Shown here: piece after piece, positions 2,639 through 20,574 of the stretch
How the letters are laid out: the number at the start of each line of letters is the position of its first letter
How positions within the stretch are numbered: the first letter of the stretch is position 1
Virus genome (UHGV): UHGV-0161508
Source: a virus
Reading direction: 5' to 3' (one strand)
DNA length: 27,866 nucleotides
Notes under the pieces: model-generated
Told to the model about the DNA's origin: nothing
Databases searched by the model: none
Seen by the model: only the letters and a program-made list of their open reading frames with translations
Position numbers and translations under genes: made by a program

Positions 2639-4056
2639 TACTCAATCCTTATCTGGCAGCCAGACAGAGTGACAGGTGACTTTGTGATAACGCGCAATTT
2701 GAAGCCGACATTTTTCCTTATTCGCCCGACACGCTTCCACAAAACACGCTTGTCGTAAACGAACGGTTCATTCTGCTCAATCATCTGCTCACGACCGTAA
2801 TTGATGCCGTCAGTGGTTGCAGAGAGAAAAAGGCGGTCGGCGTACTGCGCAACGCCAGTTGACGATTCAACCTCAAAGTCAAACACTCTGGCGTTATCCG
2901 CTTTGAACAACGGAGTAAACAGCAGGTGTTCCTGCTGCTTGTCGTACTGGCTGCTGATATCGAACTGCAATTTCCCGGTAACAGATTCCAGCTTATCGCC
3001 GCACGTTATCTGATTGCCTTCGAAAATGAAGTCGATAGCGCGGTACACATCGTCATACAGGCCTGTTTTCAGCACACACCATTGCGGGCCATTGGCGCTT
3101 GAAGATGCGTCGTACACGAGGACGTGACGCGTAAGATGGATAATCAGCAACTCATGAGCATCAAACCGCAACGATTCCATCACGCCATCAGCCAGTTCAT
3201 CAGCAGTGTAGGAGCGGAGGATTTTCTCAATGCTCGCGCTGGCGATTGGTGACACCTGACCGGAGCCGATGATGTATACAGACGGCGCACCCGTTGCCGG
3301 ATTGCTGATGAACGCATAGGAATCAGCAAACGGCGTTTTGCAGTAAGTCCCGGCAATACCTTTCTGCACCATCAGCGATGGCTGGGCGACATACAAAGCA
3401 GCACCAACGGTGGTTGCACCAGTCAGGGAAAAATACTCAATCGTCGATGAACCAAAGCAGACGATGAAGTCTCGCCATGTTCCGATTCCGATGATGCCGT
3501 CAGGCTGCGACTCGGCACGATATTGTGCGCTGTAGCGGTCAGGATGCGATTCGTCTTCAAGGTCAGTGATAAACCATGAATCAGTACCGTCTTTTGACCA
3601 CGCATAACGCCCACGTAAGCGCGTAATGTCACGGACCGAACCTAACTCATACTGCGTGAATCCGCTGTCTGTAGGCCAGTTTGAGACGGTTTTAACCGTG
3701 CCATCATAGCGATACTCGACCAGTTGACCATTAACGCCTACTGCCTGTGATGTCCGACCATGCGCCATTGATACGCGACCACTTCCGGCAACGTCACCGA
3801 CTTCACTTTCTCCTTTGTACAGCTTGCCACCACACACACGATAAACAGCATTCTGCGCCATGTTGTACTCGACGCCTCGAGATACACCGTTCACATCAGA
3901 ACGTTTGGCAATGCCCGGGAATGAGCGAAGATATCCGCTGCTGTTGAGGATTTCTTTGGGTGTAGCCAGCATATTCACTGGCAGATAGTCGATATAGTCG
4001 GCGTTTCGAAAGTCTTTGCCGACACCTTTCATAAGCGGAAGTTGCTGAATAGGCAT
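2638..4056 (-). CDS. Tail accessory factor, P22 gp10-like
   Basis: 472-aa ORF, same length as P22 gp10; start/stop overlap with gp4 and gp26. Confidence 0.8.
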
Positions 4057-4556
4057 TATTCGCTCCCGTTATCGCAAGGTTCCTTTCGGTGGAAGTAATT
4101 CCAACCATTCCACTTCGCCAACTGGTTACCACTACCAACAGGCATACGGTTTGGATAACCGGACTTACATTTAGCGGCTTTTGCCCTATCCATTGCAGAC
4201 AGTTTGACGAGTCTCTCTTTCCCGTATCTGGCAGTGGTTATAAGTTTTGCAGACGCTTCCAGCGCATAATCCGGAGCAATGCGGCAGGCAAGGTTGAAAA
4301 TGACGGCATTGATAGCGTTATTTGATAAACCGTGTTCATCGCCAGGATCTGGAGCGACATCTGCATCAGCGAAAATGTAGCCAACGTTGATACCTGGTGA
4401 CGCATCACCGCCAAGCCATTCAGCCATCATCATTTCAAGGTCGTTAACGCCGTCTTCCATAGACTGCGGTTCGACATCGGTTAACGTGGCATTTGATGCC
4501 ACACCGAGCTTACGTAATGCCGCAAGAACTAAATCACCCTTCGTTGTCAGGTTCAT
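4056..4556 (-). CDS. Head-tail adaptor / tail accessory factor, P22 gp4-like (start moved to internal ATG)
   Basis: From internal Met: [33 protein letters not shown]..., 166 aa, resembles recalled P22 gp4. The track ORF (4056..4631) has a 25-aa N-terminal extension that overlaps the upstream small ORF. Confidence 0.7.
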
Positions 4557-15402: not shown

Positions 15403-16839
15403 TCAGAATCCTCCTTTCTTCTTGGACTGCGGTTCCTCGCGTTCACGGCGGCGCATTTCAGCAGACTGTTGGTCTGTGTCATAAATAGCGCCATTTGCCT
15501 GAATGCAATACACCGTGCCGGTATTGCCATGACGATTGAGACGAAGGATTAGTTCGGTTTCACCAGGTGGAACACTGTCATCAAAAGCACCTTCACGATG
15601 GATCCCCACCCAATAATCGCAATCCTGTTCAATCTGCCCTGTATCTCGTGAGTCACTTGGTAATGGGCGTTTATTGGTTCGACTTTCCAGTGCGCGGTTA
15701 AGCTGCGTCAGAAGCACAACAACGCAATCAAGCTCTTTGGCAAGGCTCTTCAGTCCTTTGGTGATCATGCCGTAAGCAAGGTCGTTGCGATCGGCCTTCT
15801 CAGCGGTCATTAGTGTCAGGTAATCGACCAGAATCATGCCAACACATCCTTTTTCTCGCTTGATTCGACGGCTTTCGCTGACGATTTGAGCCAGAGATAA
15901 TCCCGGCGTGTCGTCGATGTAAAGCAGGTCGATTTCACTCAAGCGATTTGCTGTTTCGATCGCCCTATTGAAGTCACCATCGTAATCACCCTGATAGCCG
16001 TCATCAGCGTCATTTGTCGCCGGAAGGTAAAAAATATTCGGGTTAACACCTGACTTCTGTCCTACCAGTTTTTCCAGTATCTGATCACCTGGCATTTCAA
16101 GGCTGAACATCAGAGCAGGCTTTTTCTCATGCACTGCGCAGTTGATTGCCATCTGGCTGTATAGCGTCGTTTTCCCCATCTTAGGGCGAGCGCCAATGAC
16201 AAACAGAGAGCCTTTCACCAGACCTTTCGGTGACAGCATCCTGTCCAGCGATGGGATCCCTGTGCTCATTCCCCGTTGTTCGCCTGATGGATCAAATCGC
16301 TTCTCAAGGTCGCTAACCCAGTCTTCCATGACCTCACCAAATGAGCGAAGGCCGCGACGCGATCCGGTTTTTGCATGGTCTGTCAGTTGCGTGAAAATCG
16401 CCTGAATAGCTTCGTACTTCTGCGTTGCAGTCATTCCGTTGCGGGAATAGAGCAATTCCGTCGCTTCAGTCATGCGGTTGATGGCGTAGCGTTCCATTGC
16501 GGTTTCGCGAACCTGCATTGCATAAGCAACGATGTTTGCTGCGCTTGGCGTGTTCTTTGCGATCTCAGCGATATAAGCAAAACCGCCAACAGACACCGTT
16601 AACGATTTACGCTCCAGTTCATCGAAAAGCGTCAGGCCATCTACTGGCTTTTGCTCCCGGTGCATTCTGGTTATTTCTTCGAAAAGGATTTTGTGTGGTC
16701 GGCTGTAAAATGAATCAGGCTTCAGCATCGCCAGAACTTTCCGGACGCGCTCACTGCTGTCATCATCCAGAAGCAATCCACCAATCACCGCCTGCTCTGC
16801 CTCGATGCTATGGGGCGGCGCATAAAAATTATCGGTCAT
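15403..16839 (-). CDS. Replicative DNA helicase, DnaB family (P22 gene 12 analogue, lambda P position)
   Basis: DnaB-like N-terminus YAPPHSIEAEQAVIGGLLLD, Walker A GARPKMGKTT, and DnaB C-terminal motifs. Start placed at ATG 16839 (GAGGGTG 7 nt upstream); the track ORF begins 5 codons earlier at a GTG. Confidence 0.85.
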   Translation of the reverse strand: MTDNFYAPPHSIEAEQAVIGGLLLDDDSSERVRKVLAMLKPDSFYSRPHKILFEEITRMHREQKPVDGLTLFDELERKSLTVSVGGFAYIAEIAKNTPSAANIVAYAMQVRETAMERYAINRMTEATELLYSRNGMTATQKYEAIQAIFTQLTDHAKTGSRRGLRSFGEVMEDWVSDLEKRFDPSGEQRGMSTGIPSLDRMLSPKGLVKGSLFVIGARPKMGKTTLYSQMAINCAVHEKKPALMFSLEMPGDQILEKLVGQKSGVNPNIFYLPATNDADDGYQGDYDGDFNRAIETANRLSEIDLLYIDDTPGLSLAQIVSESRRIKREKGCVGMILVDYLTLMTAEKADRNDLAYGMITKGLKSLAKELDCVVVLLTQLNRALESRTNKRPLPSDSRDTGQIEQDCDYWVGIHREGAFDDSVPPGETELILRLNRHGNTGTVYCIQANGAIYDTDQQSAEMRRREREEPQSKKKGGF

Positions 16840-17719
16840 CGTGTTCACCCTCACGAACTTTCAGGTAGGTATTGTCGTTAAGCAGGAAATCAAATCCCTT
16901 TTTGTGCCAGACGGTTCCGCGTTGATGGTTTGGGCGCTCTTCGAACATCCATCGGCAATTTTCGCCTACGTAGCTCAAATAATTTCTCCAGTCCTGCATC
17001 GTGAACCCATGCCCGTCAAGCTGGCGGGTTATCACTCCGGCTTTGCGCCAGAACGTTCGGATCTGGTTTTTACGCTTGTCATTCAGTGCGCGGATTTTTG
17101 GCGCTTCAGGAAGGATTTCGTGGTAAGCATCGACAACATCCTGACAGCTAACGGAAGGTTTTTTCTTGTCAGACTTTTTGTCTGCTGTGGCACTCTCTAA
17201 TACGTCAGTATTAGAGATATTATTTATATTATTGTTTATGGACAACCGTTGGACAACCGTTGGACAATCTCCGCTGAGAGGCGCGCCATTACTGGTGTTT
17301 GCGTTGGACAACCGTTGGACAACCGTTGGACAATTTTTTGCCTGAAAATCGTCATATTTAACGATTGTAAACAGGCTAAATTTCTTCCCCATCGAGCAAA
17401 TATTAAGCATCCCTTTCGACTCAAAAGTCCGTAATAAGCTCCGAACTTTGTTGTCGGGGATGAATGTTTCTCTGACCAGCGACGGGCGTCCAGTTATCAT
17501 CTGACCGCGATCAACAGTTATCGGACCGATATCCGTATTGACGACAGTAGATTCGTGATTAGCCTTGAGGATTAAGTGAAGCCAAAGATGTACTGCCTGA
17601 GAGTCCTTATAGAGCCTGCTGTCCATAAACTGGCGGTGTATAGAGACATACCCCATACTGGATGCCTCCTGATGTTGTACAGGGTTATGCCTGTAATCAG
17701 CTAACTTAACGACGCCCAT
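16829..17719 (-). CDS. Replication initiator, lambda O / P22 gene 18 class, with ori iterons inside the coding sequence
   Basis: 296 aa; position upstream of the helicase; coding region contains iterons that encode the repeated CPTVVQRLS peptide; GGAG 7 nt upstream of the ATG. Confidence 0.8.
   Translation of the reverse strand: MGVVKLADYRHNPVQHQEASSMGYVSIHRQFMDSRLYKDSQAVHLWLHLILKANHESTVVNTDIGPITVDRGQMITGRPSLVRETFIPDNKVRSLLRTFESKGMLNICSMGKKFSLFTIVKYDDFQAKNCPTVVQRLSNANTSNGAPLSGDCPTVVQRLSINNNINNISNTDVLESATADKKSDKKKPSVSCQDVVDAYHEILPEAPKIRALNDKRKNQIRTFWRKAGVITRQLDGHGFTMQDWRNYLSYVGENCRWMFEERPNHQRGTVWHKKGFDFLLNDNTYLKVREGEHDDR
17239..17337. repeat. ori: Origin of replication iterons: two clusters of three 11-bp direct repeats (TGGACAACCGT x2 + TGGACAAT) with adjacent AT-rich tract
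   Basis: Direct repeats at 17239-17271 and 17305-17337 (period 11), flanked by AT-rich sequence at 17196-17238, embedded in the O-like gene as in lambda ori. Confidence 0.8.
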
Positions 17720-17867
17720 GTTTCACTCCTGCTTTGGCTAGTCTGTAAACACCAACAAGGCGCTCTGCGAACGCCCTGTTATTTGCTGCGGCTACCACTA
17801 ATCCCTCAGGTGAATCAGGGTGTCGAATCTCTTCTTTTTCCTGGTATTTCTTACGACGTTTTGTCAT
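17706..17867 (-). CDS. Hypothetical small basic protein (53 aa) between pO/oop and the initiator gene
   Basis: Manual translation MTKRRKKYQEKEEIRHPDSPEGLVVAAANNRAFAERLVGVYRLAKAGVKHGRR; GGAG 7 nt upstream of the ATG; stop overlaps the O-like start. Below the ORF-track length cutoff. Confidence 0.3.
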   Translation of the reverse strand: MTKRRKKYQEKEEIRHPDSPEGLVVAAANNRAFAERLVGVYRLAKAGVKHGRR

Positions 17868-17878
17868 AATGACTCCTG

Positions 17879-17962
17879 TGGATTGATCCAGTAATGACCT
17901 CAGAATTCCATCTGGATTTGTTCAGAACGCTCGGTCTTGCACACCGGGCGTTTTATTTTTTT
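17879..17962 (+). ncRNA. oop: OOP antisense RNA (lambda oop homologue) with its own terminator
   Basis: Plus strand GGATTGATCCAGTAATGACCTCAGAATTCCATCTGGATTTGTTCAGAACGCTCGG... closely matches recalled lambda OOP RNA; ends in hairpin ACGCTCGGT/ACCGGGCGT plus a U-tract; candidate pO -10 CATAAT at 17865-17870. Confidence 0.65.
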
Positions 17963-18381
17963 ATGTGCTTCCATTTTTCACCTCTGCAAATAGCAGCTAT
18001 ATAATTTGGCGTTACTCCATATTTTTTTGATAATGCCCTTGTGTTGAATAAGGGGTGTCTTGGTATATATTCACTAATGATGTTTCTTACATCATCTTCA
18101 GTTAATTTTGCCCTACCATTCCTGCTTCCAAATGCCTGCCTTTTTCTCTCCACCATGTCATTTGCGTTTTGCTGACTTGTCCCAGCACATAAATGAGAAG
18201 GTAAAATACAAGAAGGATTGTCACATGCGTGACGAATTACTAAGCCATCTATATCTTCAAGCTGGATCCCTTTTGCCACACAATAAGCAAATCTATGAGC
18301 AAATACTTTTTTCCCATTAATCCAAACCCTTCCATAACCCTTGCTGTCCTTTAAACCGCCAAATTCCAAACACGGAGTCAT
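17953..18381 (-). CDS. HNH endonuclease (free-standing, homing-endonuclease-like)
   Basis: 142 aa; HNH motif region HRFAYCVAKG...IRHACDNPSCILPSHLCAGTSQQNANDM; AAGGA RBS overlapping the cII stop; occupies the cII-oop junction. Confidence 0.8.
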   Translation of the reverse strand: MTPCLEFGGLKDSKGYGRVWINGKKVFAHRFAYCVAKGIQLEDIDGLVIRHACDNPSCILPSHLCAGTSQQNANDMVERKRQAFGSRNGRAKLTEDDVRNIISEYIPRHPLFNTRALSKKYGVTPNYIAAICRGEKWKHIKK

Positions 18382-18391
18382 AAGACCATCC

Positions 18392-18685
18392 TTAAAAATT
18401 CATGGTTAACTGATTCTCAGCGAAAATATCCGCCGGGCGTTTTTTATTGGTGAGAATCGAAGCAACTTGTCGTGCCAATCGAGCCATATCGTCGTCGACG
18501 ACGCCCCATTCAAGAACAGCAAGCAGCATTGAGAACTTTGGAATCCAATCCCTCTTCCACCTGCTGATCTGCGACTTATCAACTCCCACAGCTTCCGCTG
18601 TCTTCTCAGTTCCAAGCATTGCGATTTTGTTAAGCAACGCACTCTCGATTCTTAGAGCCTCGTTGCGTTTGTTTGCACGAACCAT
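18392..18685 (-). CDS. cII: Transcriptional activator CII (lambda cII / P22 c1 family); start at internal ATG
   Basis: From internal Met: MVRANKRNEALRIESALLNKIAMLGTEKTAEAVGVDKSQISRWKRDWIPKFSMLLAVLEWGVVDDDMARLARQV... matches lambda CII until ...TNKKRPA, then has a different C-terminus (DIFAENQLTMNF). The track ORF has a spurious 29-aa extension that runs over nutR. Confidence 0.9.
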   Translation of the reverse strand: MVRANKRNEALRIESALLNKIAMLGTEKTAEAVGVDKSQISRWKRDWIPKFSMLLAVLEWGVVDDDMARLARQVASILTNKKRPADIFAENQLTMNF

Positions 18686-18695
18686 ATGTAAGTAT
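18663..18695 (+). promoter_or_regulatory. pRE (cII-dependent promoter for repressor establishment)
   Basis: Plus strand TTGC-GTTTGT-TTGC then 13 nt then AAGTAT, overlapping the cII start, directed toward cro/c2 as in lambda. Confidence 0.7.
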
Positions 18696-18742
18696 TTCCT
18701 TAACAAATAAGAAGTTATGCGCATCAACTTATGCGCGTTGTA

Positions 18743-18787
18743 TTCCCGCATTTCGGCGGGAATGAGGACCATGACTGTTAAAGAGCA
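18743..18787 (-). promoter_or_regulatory. nutR: nutR (boxA + boxB)
   Basis: Minus strand boxA TGCTCTTTAACA just after the cro stop, then boxB hairpin TTCCCGCCGAAATGCGGGAA. Confidence 0.7.
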
Positions 18788-18793
18788 ATTTGC

Positions 18794-18979
18794 TTATGCC
18801 GCTTTGCGGTAAGCGCTTTCTTGATACTTCAGGGCGCCAGCTGTAACGACTTCCAGTCGATAGGCGTCTTTCTCTGGGATGACTTCCTTCCACTGAGAGA
18901 CTGCTGCGTCGCTAATGCCTAACGCTTTAGCTACAGCACGCTGGGTTCCGAAGTGGTCGATAACATCTTTCTTGTACAT
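18794..18979 (-). CDS. cro: Cro repressor, P22-type
   Basis: 61-aa ORF MYKKDVIDHFGTQRAVAKALGISDAAVSQWKEVIPEKDAYRLEVVTAGALKYQESAYRKAA matches recalled P22 Cro; HTH motif QRAVAKALGISDAAVSQW. Confidence 0.95.
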   Translation of the reverse strand: MYKKDVIDHFGTQRAVAKALGISDAAVSQWKEVIPEKDAYRLEVVTAGALKYQESAYRKAA

Positions 18980-18993
18980 AGACTCGCTCCGAA

Positions 18994-19059
18994 ATTAAAG
19001 AACACTTAAATTATCCACTAAAGGAATCTTAAGTCAAGTTTATTTAAGATGTCTTAACT
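18994..19059. promoter_or_regulatory. Right operator OR1-OR2-OR3 (three 18-bp P22-type c2/cro sites)
   Basis: ATTAAAGAACACTTAAAT (18994-19011), ACTAAAGGAATCTTAAGT (19017-19034), ATTTAAGATGTCTTAACT (19042-19059); inverted half-sites A-T-T-AAG with 4-bp centre; spacing 23 and 25 bp. Confidence 0.75.
19009..19037 (-). promoter_or_regulatory. pR promoter (drives cro-cII-replication operon)
   Basis: Minus strand TTGACT - 17 bp - ATAATT overlapping OR1/OR2; GGAG RBS 7 nt before the cro ATG. Confidence 0.7.
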
Positions 19060-19710
19060 ATGAAAACTCAATTGATGGGAGAGCGCATTCGCGCTCGGAG
19101 AAAAGAACTCAAGATCAGGCAGGCCGCACTTGGAAAGATGGTCGGCGTGTCTAATGTTGCCATATCTCAGTGGGAACGCTCTGAGACAGAGCCAAATGGA
19201 GAGAATCTTCTCGCCCTGGCTAATGCGTTGAAGTGTTCCCCTGACTATCTGATGAAAGGAGAGGAAAGTCTTTCAAACATTGCCTATCACAGTAGGCATG
19301 ATCCAAGAGGGTCATACCCTCTGATTAGCTGGGTGAGCGCAGGATGCTGGATGGAAGCTGTAGAACCATATCATAAGCGTGCAATAGATAACTGGTACGA
19401 TACAACCGTAGACTGTTCAGAAGATTCGTTTTGGTTGGACGTGAAGGGAGACTCAATGACGGCTCCGGCCGGTCTCAGTATCCCTGAAGGAATGATAATA
19501 CTCGTCGATCCTGAAGTAGAGCCGCGTAACGGGAAACTGGTAGTTGCAAAGCTCGAAGGAGAAAACGAGGCAACTTTCAAGAAGTTAGTTATTGATGCAG
19601 GCAGGAAGTTTCTAAAACCACTTAACCCACAATATCCGATGATCGAGATCAACGGAAACTGCAAAATCATCGGCGTAGTTGTCGATGCAAAACTAGCAAA
19701 CCTTCCATAA
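19060..19710 (+). CDS. c2: Prophage repressor C2 (lambda CI analogue), P22-type
   Basis: 216-aa ORF MKTQLMGERIRARRKELKIRQAALGKMVGVSNVAISQWERSETEPNGENLLAL... matches recalled P22 c2 including the C-terminal LexA-like autocleavage domain; no SD before the ATG, consistent with a near-leaderless pRM transcript. Confidence 0.95.
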   Translation: MKTQLMGERIRARRKELKIRQAALGKMVGVSNVAISQWERSETEPNGENLLALANALKCSPDYLMKGEESLSNIAYHSRHDPRGSYPLISWVSAGCWMEAVEPYHKRAIDNWYDTTVDCSEDSFWLDVKGDSMTAPAGLSIPEGMIILVDPEVEPRNGKLVVAKLEGENEATFKKLVIDAGRKFLKPLNPQYPMIEINGNCKIIGVVVDAKLANLP

Positions 19711-19733
19711 AGGGGCATTCGCCCCTTTTTTTA
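19709..19733 (+). terminator. Intrinsic terminator immediately after c2
   Basis: AGGGGC-ATTC-GCCCCT followed by TTTTTTT. Confidence 0.75.
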
Positions 19734-19775
19734 TTTCCTTTAAAAATCAAAGCCAAACTTAAGTTACGAAAGAAA

Positions 19776-19829
19776 ATTTAAGTTTTCTTCAAAAATACTC
19801 TTGACCATTAATTAAAGAGATCTTAAATT
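19776..19829 (+). promoter_or_regulatory. OL operators and pL promoter
   Basis: -35 TTGACC (19801-19806), 17-bp spacer, -10 TAAATT (19824-19829). Operator ATTAAAGAGATCTTAAAT (19811-19828) and degenerate ATTTAAGTTTTCTTCAAA (19776-19793) share the OR half-site. Confidence 0.65.
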
Positions 19830-19874
19830 TAAGCCATCAGCAGGACGCTGGTAGCCAAACGGAACAGATTGGCA

Positions 19875-19917
19875 GGCTCTTTAACATTGATGGGATTGTC
19901 CCGCCGAAATGCGGGAA
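19875..19917 (+). promoter_or_regulatory. nutL: nutL (boxA + boxB)
   Basis: boxA GGCTCTTTAACA (19875-19886), 12-nt spacer, boxB hairpin TCCCGCCGAAATGCGGGAA (19899-19917), identical to the nutR boxB. Confidence 0.7.
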
Positions 19918-20274
19918 CTGAGTTTAACCAAACAGGAGGTGCCGTAATGGTGCACTAACGCGGTTAGACCGCAGCCGAAAGGCAATGCAGCAGTAATGAT
20001 GCTGCCCCGAGTCGCGTAATGGCGAGCAGGTTTAGCAGACCGATGTGAGGGTAAATAAGGGAACATGCTCCGGAAAGGCAGCGCGAATGCCAGACGCGCA
20101 CCGGTTATCAGCGGCTAATAAGCGACAGAGACTCAAGGGCATGAGCGCGCTCACTGCGAGAGTGTGAGTCAAAGAGTAGTTGGCTTTGGGGTGACGTGAA
20201 GTGCAGCTGCACGCCGGCAGCCGGAAGATAAGCACCCGGCGCGTCACCGCCAAAGTCAATCATCGGAGGTCAAC

Positions 20275-20574
20275 ATGACAGTAGTCATTACATATCTGGC
20301 TGACGATAACGCCAGAAATCGCCGCAGAGCACGCAGACAGGCTCAACGTGAACAGGCAATGCAAGAGCAGCGACTGGCGCGAAAAATTGCGCTAAAGCTC
20401 TCTGGTTGCGTCAGAGCAGATAAAGCAGCATCACTCGGAAGCCTTCGCTGCAAGAAGGCAGAAGAAGTCGAGCGTAAACAGAACCGTATTTACTACCGCA
20501 AGCCACGCAGTGAAATGGGTGTGACTTGTGTTGGTCGCCAGAAAATGAAATTAGGCAGCAAACCACTTATTTGA
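20275..20574 (+). CDS. N: Antitermination protein N (arginine-rich-motif family, not P22 gp24-type)
   Basis: 99 aa; N-terminal arginine-rich motif DNARNRRRARRQAQREQ; first gene after pL/nutL; GGAGG 5 nt before the ATG. Confidence 0.8.
   Translation: MTVVITYLADDNARNRRRARRQAQREQAMQEQRLARKIALKLSGCVRADKAASLGSLRCKKAEEVERKQNRIYYRKPRSEMGVTCVGRQKMKLGSKPLI

Follow-up and report, generated by a model that had tools for sequence, protein, structure and literature searches.

The overlap between cII and the antisense RNA oop is a textbook case of cis-antisense control, and the share of oop in the lambda decision is still debated. In the lambdoid prophage described here a free-standing HNH endonuclease gene sits at this very overlap, which raises the question of how a gene came to lie in a site shared by two functions, and what became of both of them. 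The overlap of oop with the cII coding sequence is 52 nt long in lambda (PMC5869508), and RNase III-dependent control of the cII mRNA by oop is credited there to earlier work (Krinke and Wulff 1987, 1990, cited in PMC5869508). The 27,866-nucleotide stretch of viral DNA that we analyzed (UHGV-0161508, hereafter the window) is 100% identical to E. coli W46, and the pR operon of this prophage runs on the minus strand. The original prediction, made from the letters of the window, had placed an HNH gene, cII, oop and a flanking duplicate at the junction, and all four are present within 1–3 nt of where it put them. The genes and gene ends are these:

18392–18685, minus strand: cII gene, 97 aa (Pfam Phage_CII, E = 2.8e-45), lambda-type up to KKRP
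18392–18432, minus strand: surrogate cII tail (A)DIFAENQLTMNF plus stop, from the insert; DNA present only in the 6 HNH-bearing E. coli genomes
18382–18394, minus strand: cII stop (18392–18394) and 10-nt spacer, read from the sequence
17953–18381, minus strand: HNH endonuclease gene, 142 aa plus TAA stop (Pfam HNH_3, PHROG, AlphaFold2)
17900–17943, minus strand: vestige of the native cII tail, (V)CKTERSEQIQMEF and its TGA stop, collinear with the 3' end of cII in HK633, lambda and phi24B
17706–17867, minus strand: 53-aa gene downstream, like HK97 gp53 (PHROG 1331, E = 1.4e-37; HK633 annotation)

The HNH gene and its product

The HNH protein scored above the Pfam cut-off for HNH_3 (PF13392; 28.9 bits against 24.8, E = 9.1e-7, residues 27–73) and matched PHROG 59 (E = 3e-28) and PHROG 6254, both of which are annotated as HNH endonuclease. 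A doubt attached to the original prediction, that a proper domain search might find the catalytic residues absent, is thereby removed, as the motif is intact: H51, C53, D54, N55, C58, H63 and N72 are invariant in 21 homologues with identities down to 30%, and roles in catalysis can be predicted for these residues by analogy. The protein is predicted to be built of an N-terminal His-Me finger with an RHxCDNPxCxNPxHL...DN motif and a C-terminal helical, putative DNA-binding part. A PDB sequence search with the protein gave no relevant match; its AlphaFold2 model (mean pLDDT 89), when compared with the PDB by Foldseek, had I-HmuI and I-PpoI as top matches (probability 0.97 for the two best), with weak E-values (8e-3 to 0.24) and TM-scores of 0.28–0.40. 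The best of these, I-HmuI of Bacillus phage SPO1 (PDB 1u3e), matched over 149 columns at 17% identity (E = 8e-3). Motif and model suggest that the protein is an active nuclease.

Among named proteins, the closest relatives are the free-standing HNH homing endonucleases encoded by T7-like phages, e.g., 7.7C of Citrobacter phage CR44b, annotated as a "predicted homing endonuclease"; these belong to the same family (42–47% identity over the full length) and have the same predicted build of His-Me finger and C-terminal helical part. The T7-like genes occupy positions within or between the replication and virion genes of their lytic phages, whereas the clade of the window gene is found only at the cII/oop junction of temperate lambdoid phages and, unlike them, brings a substitute gene end and a terminator arm.

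In its present setting the nuclease gene appears to be a cistron downstream of cII in the pR operon. Its start (18379–18381) had been thought to overlap the cII stop (18392–18394); the two are separated by the 10-nt spacer, and what overlaps the stop is the Shine-Dalgarno-like TAAGGA of the HNH gene. An equivalent layout, with TAGGAG over the cII stop, is seen in loci L005, L010, L172 and L176.

The insert and its empty sites

HK633 matches both flanks of the window at 98% with the site empty, and is the HNH-less counterpart of the window. A phi24B-type empty site proved perfectly collinear with M160133, whose insert has no mismatches to that of the window, except for exactly 489 bp. Alignment of the HNH-less APEC20/16 with M160133 likewise showed a single uninterrupted gap of 489 bp; the 962 bp of flank contained 10 mismatches (99% identity), none of them within 58 bp of a junction. 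The near-isogenic empty sites of HK633 and APEC20/16 bear out the claim that a free-standing HNH gene was inserted in the oop terminator at the cII 3' end, and the separation of the two halves of the oop element, put at about 490 bp beforehand, is exactly 489 bp by both the APEC20/16–M160133 comparison and the repeat spacing. The elements at the boundaries are:

17944–18432, minus strand: insert, 489 bp, equally writable as 17955–18443
17944–17959, unstranded: HNH-side repeat copy, CCGGGCGTTTTATTTT, with the 3' arm and U-tract now used by the oop terminator
18433–18448, unstranded: cII-side repeat copy, CCGGGCGTTTTTTATT, left over from the original terminator as its orphaned 3' arm and U-tract

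The insertion site is the arm/loop boundary of the oop terminator within the cII 3' end, after the Pro codon of ...KKRP. An 11-bp direct repeat, CCGGGCGTTTT, flanks the insert, and it is because of this repeat that the two ways of writing the boundaries are equally valid. The near-duplicate first described as 14–16 bp long is present at a spacing of exactly 489 bp, with an exact match of 11 nt and 14/16 overall; we estimate that chance would very rarely place an exact 11-mer at both junctions. The more specific statement that the gene went exactly into the terminator loop is right against the lambda loop only, and in general has to give way to an arm/loop boundary with an 11-bp duplication. 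Within the insert, 13 codons that replace the end of cII are followed by a ribosome-binding site overlapping the cII stop and by the 142-aa HNH_3 gene, the sole ORF of the insert. The far end of the insert is an A-rich stretch and the 11-bp target copy (AAAACGCCCGG), which together form, on the opposite strand, the 3' arm of the oop terminator and its U-tract.

Six of the 1,749 E. coli genomes that matched the site carry the insert, an empty-to-filled ratio of ~290:1. Neither the insert nor any HNH of >60% identity was present among 50,697 phage records, and the insert is absent from all sequenced phage isolates; an IMG/VR scan returned the window itself and two further identical copies, all other matches being relatives at ≤47% identity. 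Three flank contexts share the identical insert, which lies behind both lambda-type and Stx-type cII, and the tract common to the window and M160133 extends only over 17904–18454, ending ~20–40 bp past the insert on each side. An assembly artefact was considered and rejected, the insert being present in six complete genomes and several metagenomes.

The cII gene and its tails

The cII of the window terminates in KKRPADIFAENQLTMNF. That its C-terminus would be altered had been foreseen, and in our E. coli genome scan the surrogate-tail DNA was restricted to the 6 HNH-bearing genomes, with no HNH-less relative sharing this C-terminus. The new tail is not arbitrary: it equals a lambda-type tail in length and retains Q, M and F at positions −6, −3 and −1, and the surrogate tails of five lineages share the terminal motif Q-x-x-(M/I)-x-F, in which position −3 is M or I. 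The replacement retains exactly the residues flagged by the genetics of the cII C-terminus, positions −6 and −3 being those of the Gln-to-Arg (sixth from the end) and Met-to-Val (third from the end) mutants reported in PMC5869508; according to work cited in the same paper, the FtsH degradation signal comprises 16 residues, which include these two positions.

The native tail remains 3' of the HNH gene (17900–17943), where it has apparently lost its translation and now forms the body of the putative oop RNA, and comparable vestigial tails are found 3' of the HNH gene in L005, L010, L172, L176 and EC11. These in-frame, native-like tails vary by lineage (ERSEQIQMEF, ERSDQINMKF, SDQITMQF and SEQQITINF). 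Our search for cII homologues gave 561 matches, 120 of which were inspected. The cII P0076 was chosen for the likeness of its tail to the HNH-linked tail of L010, and an HNH gene was found downstream; the cII P0129, with a tail ending in QISMDF, was suspected of being HNH-linked too and was rejected, as it is without an HNH gene and has a native hairpin in the tail.

The oop RNA, its terminator and pO

Three features on the plus strand make up the antisense unit:

17862–17870, plus strand: likely pO promoter, extended −10 TGtCATAAT, the same element as in lambda and HK633, with a presumed promoter function
17878–17962, plus strand: oop antisense RNA homologue, 5' end by homology to lambda oop, 3' end in the U-tract
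17924–17964, plus strand: oop intrinsic terminator, with a 12-bp stem, 7-nt loop CTTGCAC and tail ATTTTTTTAT (terminator scan)

Rfam holds no oop family, and the homology rests on sequence comparison with lambda and HK633. The first 58 nt are identical to lambda oop at 55 positions (3 mismatches), the HK633 annotation notes similarity to lambda oop for the equivalent segment, and the predicted two-hairpin fold (−27.7 kcal/mol, z = −3.75) matches that of lambda oop, with which the pO −10 and an intrinsic terminator are also shared. The stem at 17924–17954, followed by ATTTTTTT, is the only plus-strand terminator-like site in 17600–18800. Its loop CTTGCAC and arm ACCGGGCG, on the left side of the insert, had been read as new, which is mistaken: loop and 3' arm are identical to those of phi24B and are the native terminator of Stx-type phages. 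We had ourselves entertained the idea that co-varying terminator arms of HNH-bearing loci reflect a cassette "repairing" the hairpin, and dropped it because the phi24B hairpin is wholly native and the duplication lies on the U-tract side only. The lambda-type half-terminator (CCGCCGGGCGTTTTTTATTGGTGAG), predicted at 18431–18450, is also present, its start being 18430. At the cII-side repeat copy (18433–18448) the terminator scan and folding found no terminator-like hairpin, and this copy is now only the cII codons N-K-K-R-P.

The HNH-side copy (17944–17959), in contrast, overlaps the HNH stop and final HNH codons, and the stop codon is inside the terminator U-tract. With oop ending near 17962 and cII at 18392, the two overlap by 0 nt, compared to 52 nt in lambda; the predicted loss of overlap is thus upheld, and what oop covers instead is the end of the HNH gene, with its stop codon and at most some two sense codons, together with the spacer before the next gene. 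As far as can be read from this arrangement, cII has its full length, and neither the two hairpins of oop nor its terminator are lost, because the insert brings a substitute tail and terminator arm, and cII and oop are physically uncoupled.

At the pO site lies the start codon of the next gene on the opposite strand, and the start of this 53-aa gene (17706–17867) is the right edge of the oop/pO module. A consensus promoter scan did not call pO because its −35 is weak, and the three plus-strand promoter-like sites inside the HNH gene were no more numerous than in shuffles. The only Rfam match in 16500–20500, a weak one to RefA1 at 19708–19802, is merely the terminator hairpin after cI.

Relatives, selection and history of the HNH gene

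HNH relatives at 49–85% identity (83, 71, 69, 63, 53–57 and 49–52) lie directly behind a Phage_CII gene, and those at ≤49% in other bacteria have no adjoining Phage_CII gene. In a scan of species-representative genomes 1 of the 80 loci kept adjoins cII (Lelliottia, L012), the others being distant HNH genes in unrelated contexts. The main clade was monophyletic in 200/200 bootstraps, and joint monophyly with the L011/L012 pair was weak (102/200); this pair may be a second, independent colonization, in which case the cII/oop overlap would be a recurrent landing pad. Compared to the window, L005 has an HNH of 83% identity and a cII of 52%, and L176 an HNH of 69% and a cII of 77%, identities by which the history of HNH disagrees with that of cII.

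Within the main clade pN was 0.07–0.24 against a pS of 0.67–0.92, with a dN/dS of 0.044 for L010 versus L176, values which indicate strong purifying selection on the HNH relatives. This strong selection together with saturated synonymous sites means that the gene has been long retained. Such long-term purifying selection exceeds what is usual for a purely selfish homing gene and hints at a benefit to the phage.

Origin of the insert

We consider it likely that the 489-bp block represents a gene cassette of a free-standing HNH homing endonuclease that has specialized on the cII/oop overlap of lambdoid phages, and weighed this against several other origins. As the exact removal of the block restores the native cII frame, a group I intron carrying an HNH gene of the I-HmuI type could be envisaged, with splicing rejoining cII to the native tail as a second exon; the closest structural match, I-HmuI, is intron-encoded and nicks one strand. 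Unlike for I-HmuI, no intron was found here, since Rfam gave no group I or group II match in 16500–20500 at E-values up to 1. In addition, the ~60 of 489 nt outside the HNH ORF are too little for a ribozyme core, there is no U at any exon-1 end that the repeat permits, and the tail made by read-through has preserved a selected motif in five lineages, with a ribosome-binding site over its stop, all of which leaves splicing with an almost negligible probability. The exact 11-bp direct repeat might also be the target-site duplication of a transposon or IS-like element; this is extremely unlikely for a block that has the HNH gene as its only ORF, without a transposase, in which repeat analysis found no terminal inverted repeats, and every copy of which is at one site, with none at any other in 5,426 E. 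coli genomes. An intein reading was considered and rejected. The reverse polarity, an older HNH-bearing state from which empty sites arose by deletion between the 11-bp repeats, gains from the fact that recombination of the two CCGGGCGTTTT copies regenerates a phi24B-type site exactly, so that a single comparison gives no direction. However, the segment after HNH is still a complete in-frame native cII tail with a stop and varies largely as native tails do, a pattern expected only if it was once coding; empty sites far outnumber filled ones, the GC content of the insert (38–40%) is below that of the flanks (45–47%), and HNH relatives outside the clade occur in unrelated phages, making deletion very unlikely.

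A further possibility, which we judge unlikely, is a retained accessory or domesticated HNH gene that was acquired once and spread by ordinary homologous recombination in the cII-tail/oop flanks, not by homing; such a gene might serve in the exclusion of competing lambdoid phages, or in replication or recombination. The very strong purifying selection with saturated synonymous sites would fit this, as would the wiring of the gene into the pR operon by a ribosome-binding site conserved over the cII stop, and the flanks are conserved across differing modules, Stx-type and lambda-type cII sharing the tail region and little else. The three flank contexts and the discordant HNH and cII histories could likewise have arisen without nuclease activity, because lambdoid phages recombine readily at conserved segments, and caution has been urged in reading the roles of sporadic HNH genes of lambdoid phages from their positions (PMC12315714). 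On the other hand, a gene found in 6 of 1,749 site-bearing genomes and absent from sequenced phage isolates is unlike a generally useful one, the tract shared with M160133, ending so close to the insert, fits short conversion tracts, and the nearest relatives are annotated as homing endonucleases; moreover, exclusion by cutting HNH-less rivals is mechanistically homing.

Proposed mechanism and significance

For a homing cassette, we infer both homing and a rewired oop/RNase III control from the arrangement of the locus. When an HNH-bearing phage meets an HNH-less one, in co-infection or in an infected lysogen, the nuclease would cut or nick the intact site, and the cassette would be copied in by repair, with homology provided by the conserved cII-tail/oop segment on each side. 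To the left of the insertion point the HNH-side junction has the sequence of the empty site over at least 11 bp, so self-immunity would need recognition that reaches further into cII, or a self-tolerant nicking enzyme. It is probable that the specificity of the cassette is a new endonuclease specificity against a highly conserved short lambdoid segment. The oop RNA would pair with the HNH stop codon and the spacer between HNH and the next gene, not with the cII coding sequence, and RNase III cuts, if any, would therefore be located 3' of the HNH gene; the nuclease would thereby come under oop control, and the effect of oop on cII would be weakened or delayed. We speculate further, as a possibility that we still regard as doubtful, that this is a homing lineage specialized on a sense/antisense overlap that carries a surrogate, recoded cII degradation tail and a surrogate oop terminator arm, turning oop from a cis-antisense regulator of cII into a regulator of the nuclease and shifting, like a naturally occurring "uncoupling mutant", the balance of its carriers between lysis and lysogeny.

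We know of no cassette that supplies a substitute gene end and also rebuilds the terminator of an antisense RNA. Elements that use integrases and att sites to enter tRNA genes at the 3' end bring a replacement for that end, and the logic is shared, in that a conserved target is interrupted and a surrogate copy preserves the host function; here, by contrast, the agent would be a nuclease of the HNH type, and no more than 11 bp of target are duplicated. Free-standing homing genes of the T4 type (mobE, seg) and nuclease genes found where phages exchange DNA are likewise polymorphic for presence and absence beside conserved essential sequences and likewise lie at mosaic boundaries (PMC2790892, PMC10448857), although all of these are of nuclease lineages other than that of the HNH gene described here. 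No paper linking an HNH gene with cII and oop was found in the literature searched. By replacing both interrupted functions, such a cassette would solve the problem of selfish insertion in a compact genome, and the HNH prophages provide natural constructs with an intact oop and an intact cII that do not overlap. The near-isogenic pairs W46/HK633 and M160133/APEC20/16 could reveal directly the role of the overlap itself.

Layout of the locus

The window is a lambdoid prophage in which all the elements named in the original prediction were found. It is the IMG/VR contig UViG_3300045988_023299, and E. coli W46 is 100% identical to it over 17850-18500. Its pR operon lies on the minus strand and the oop homologue on the plus strand; in lambda, oop transcription runs antisense to cII.

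Features of the cI to helicase region
19060-19710, plus: cI
18794-18979, minus: cro
18392-18685, minus: cII
18433-18448: orphaned terminator arm on the cII side, now only cII codons N-K-K-R-P
17953-18381, minus: HNH gene
17924-17954, plus: oop terminator stem (loop CTTGCAC, tail ATTTTTTT)
17900-17943: old cII tail, (V)CKTERSEQIQMEF + TGA, untranslated and now oop body
17706-17867, minus: 53-aa gene, HK97 gp53-like
16829-17719, minus: O-like replication gene
15403-16854, minus: DnaB-type helicase gene

As predicted, an oop body starts at ~17878 on the plus strand, with three mismatches to lambda oop in its first 58 nt; its predicted fold (-27.7 kcal/mol, z = -3.75) has both hairpins of lambda oop, and its complete terminator is the sole plus-strand terminator-like site in a scan of 17600-18800. 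The lambda-type half-terminator CCGCCGGGCGTTTTTTATTGGTGAG starts at 18430 inside cII, and neither scanning nor folding formed a terminator at the orphaned arm. The flanking near-duplicate CCGGGCGTTTT(T)ATT is likewise present (17944-17959 and 18433-18448), the copies being spaced by exactly 489 bp. The HNH start had been said to overlap the cII stop; instead, a gap of 10 nt separates the cII stop (18392-18394) from the HNH start codon (18379-18381) that follows it, and the stop is overlapped by a Shine-Dalgarno-like TAAGGA.

Two further elements were observed in this region. Inside the O-like gene, at 17228-17345, an 11-bp repeat (TGGACAACCGT) occurs three times in each of two clusters 66 bp apart; these are probably origin iterons. 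Directly after the cI stop codon, a GC-rich hairpin and T-run (AAAGGGGCATTCGCCCCTTTTTTT, 19708-19735) is probably the cI terminator and accounts for a weak Rfam RefA1 match.

The insertion point

HK633, an HNH-less phage, matches both sides of the HNH gene at 98% and has an uninterrupted site (...GAACGCTCGGTTGCCGCCGGGCGTTTTTTATTGGTGAG...); with this lambda-type site as reference the break appears within the terminator loop, as originally proposed. Placement in the loop does not hold against the Stx phage phi24B, which carries a natural terminator variant (pR sense AATAAAAAACGCCCGG TGTGCAAG ACCGAGCGT). In the window, the sequence adjoining the HNH gene on its left has exactly this loop and arm; the hairpin there is native and not new sequence. 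Exactly 489 inserted bases set the HNH allele of E. coli M160133 apart from the phi24B site, with perfect collinearity elsewhere, and the window insert (17944-18432) has no mismatches to them. A near-isogenic HNH-less prophage, APEC20/16, differs from M160133 by a single contiguous 489-bp gap; of the 962 bp of flank compared, 10 are mismatched, all of them outside the 58 bp next to each junction. The event is therefore a clean insertion of 489 bp, placed where the 3' arm of the terminator meets its loop.

Insert contents, in the pR direction, following cII ...AAA AAA CGC CCG G
Part 1: 13 new cII codons and stop
Part 2: spacer with ribosome-binding site
Part 3: 142-codon HNH gene, ending ...CAC ATA AAA AAA TAA
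Part 4: AAAACGCCCGG, a repeat of the 11 bp preceding the insertion point

On the oop strand, the insert's A-rich end and the repeat copy form the terminator 3' arm and U-tract, and the HNH stop codon therefore lies inside the terminator tail.

An imperfect palindrome at 18412-18458, with 23-nt arms that are 74% complementary, has its centre at the right-hand junction and pairs the first new tail codons with the adjoining upstream codons of cII; its fold z-score is only -1.36 and it may be due to chance, although it lies mostly inside a tract common to all three flank contexts of the insert.

The surrogate cII tail and the oop overlap

The predicted change of the cII C-terminus was confirmed, ...KKRPADIFAENQLTMNF standing in place of ...KKRPAATERSEQIQMEF. 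Native long tails read NKKRP(AA or VCK)TERS(E/D)QIQMEF, with variants; surrogate and native tails have almost no DNA in common, and the surrogates retain Q at -6, M or I at -3 and F at -1, that of the window having the length of a lambda-type tail. Mutations at the sixth (Gln) and third (Met) residues from the end alter CII phenotypes (PMC5869508), and since precisely these positions are retained the surrogate would be a working cII tail.

The tails of natural cII homologues (P0075-P0144) are of two classes, long (...TERSEQIQMEF) and short (KEK(A/R)P...(L/F)(E/D)A), the short one appearing to be wholly encoded by the terminator hairpin. One lambda-type cII (P0027; locus L175, 2501-2881) has the first eight surrogate residues (DIFAENQL) followed by unrelated sequence (NTFIPNAFLEKLL...) and a replication-type gene, with no HNH gene; this has the appearance of a scar, or of a recombinant, left by an HNH-bearing allele.

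Lambda oop overlaps cII by 52 nt (PMC5869508). Here, by coordinates, the oop homologue overlaps none of cII, as anticipated, covering instead the HNH stop codon, at most ~2 sense codons and the 85 nt that separate the HNH gene from its downstream neighbour. Should RNase III process the duplex of oop and mRNA in the way known from lambda (Krinke and Wulff, as cited in PMC5869508), cleavage would occur 3' of the HNH gene, and oop would both affect the cII-HNH message at a greater distance and control the nuclease.

The HNH protein and its relatives

The protein exceeds the cut-off of Pfam HNH_3 and has matches among the HNH endonuclease families of PHROG, and its predicted catalytic motif is intact, with H51, C53, D54, N55, C58, H63 and N72 invariant in 21 homologues. 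The closest structures to its AlphaFold2 model (mean pLDDT 89) were the HNH homing endonuclease I-HmuI, then I-PpoI, with weak E-values; the nearest named relatives (42-47% identity) come from T7-like phages and are HNH homing endonucleases of the free-standing kind.

Relatives lie immediately behind a Phage_CII gene in all of the loci L005-L009 (83% identity to the window protein), L010 (71%), L176 (69%), L172 (63%), L011 (53-57%) and L012, from a Lelliottia genome (49-52%), with varying cII alleles and replication modules; the more distant relatives found in other bacteria do not adjoin cII. The five closest proteins form a clade in 200/200 bootstraps and L011 and L012 form another. As the two are joined in only 102/200, one colonisation of the site or two are both possible.

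Layout at every main-clade locus
1: cII tail ending Q-x-x-(M/I)-x-F
2: stop codon overlapped by TAGGAG or TAAGGA
3: HNH gene
4: strong oop-strand hairpin and T-run overlapping the HNH end
5: vestigial native tail (ERSDQINMKF, SDQITMQF, SEQQITINF or DSDQITMDF)

One cII (P0076), chosen for a tail like the HNH-linked tail of L010, indeed had an HNH gene downstream; another candidate, P0129, proved wrong, having a native hairpin within its tail. HNH and cII identities to the window are discordant (83% and 52% for L005; 69% and 77% for L176). The HNH gene is maintained, since pN in the main clade is 0.07-0.24 vs pS 0.67-0.92, and dN/dS between L010 and L176 is 0.044.

L011 and L012 have short-class cII tails. 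The L011 relative (1080-1562) has an in-frame TAG after 133 codons, past which the frame runs on into ...EKASEAGTSKA*, apparently the remnant of a short-class cII tail. A copy in decay, an error in sequencing or the joining of the HNH end to the former tail could each explain this.

Distribution and spread of the cassette

The insert is present in 6 of 1,749 complete E. coli genomes matching the region, and the new cII tail DNA in exactly those six. Among 50,697 phage records none carried the insert, nor an HNH protein more than 60% identical to those of the window, L176 or L012.

Flank contexts of the identical insert
Window: lambda-type cII, HK633-type downstream genes
EC11, L094: lambda-type cII, different replication module
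M160133, L093: Stx-type cII, which has little in common with the lambda type outside the tail; shared tract only 17904-18454

The sequence evidence is consistent with a free-standing homing endonuclease gene whose insertion does no damage: cII retains a full tail and none of the oop parts (promoter, body, terminator) is lost, while the nuclease would be translated from pR as a cistron after cII. The clean presence/absence polymorphism, rarity, short shared tracts in different backgrounds and family relationship suggest spread by nuclease-stimulated gene conversion, although the cassette could also travel by ordinary recombination within the flanks, which are conserved. That the filled site is ancestral and empty sites arose by deletion is unlikely, as the vestigial tail still resembles coding sequence and filled sites are ~290 times rarer than empty ones. 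The strong purifying selection on the HNH gene hints at a domesticated function. A group I intron was rejected (no Rfam intron match in 16500-20500, only ~60 nt outside the ORF, no U available at the exon end), as was a transposon, there being neither transposase nor terminal inverted repeats.

HNH genes in prophages are already routine, and RefSeq labels this one 'HNH endonuclease'; our literature search found nothing linking an HNH gene with cII and oop. What distinguishes the cassette is its address inside a classic sense/antisense overlap, and that it brings replacements for both overlapped functions.

Related loci hold further nuclease genes. In L010, a 201-aa gene (3516-4121) bearing T5orf172/MUG113 domains, a type counted among the homing endonuclease families in PMC10448857, directly follows the HNH gene and oop region, and this phage may have two mobile nuclease genes bracketing oop. 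Related prophages carry other HNH genes at other positions (L004 127-654 and L178 529-1047): an 'HNH endonuclease signature motif' gene in the M160133 nin region, at the place taken by a methyltransferase in EC11, and an HNH_3+AP2 gene adjoining N in L178. This suggests that several nuclease genes circulate among these phages.
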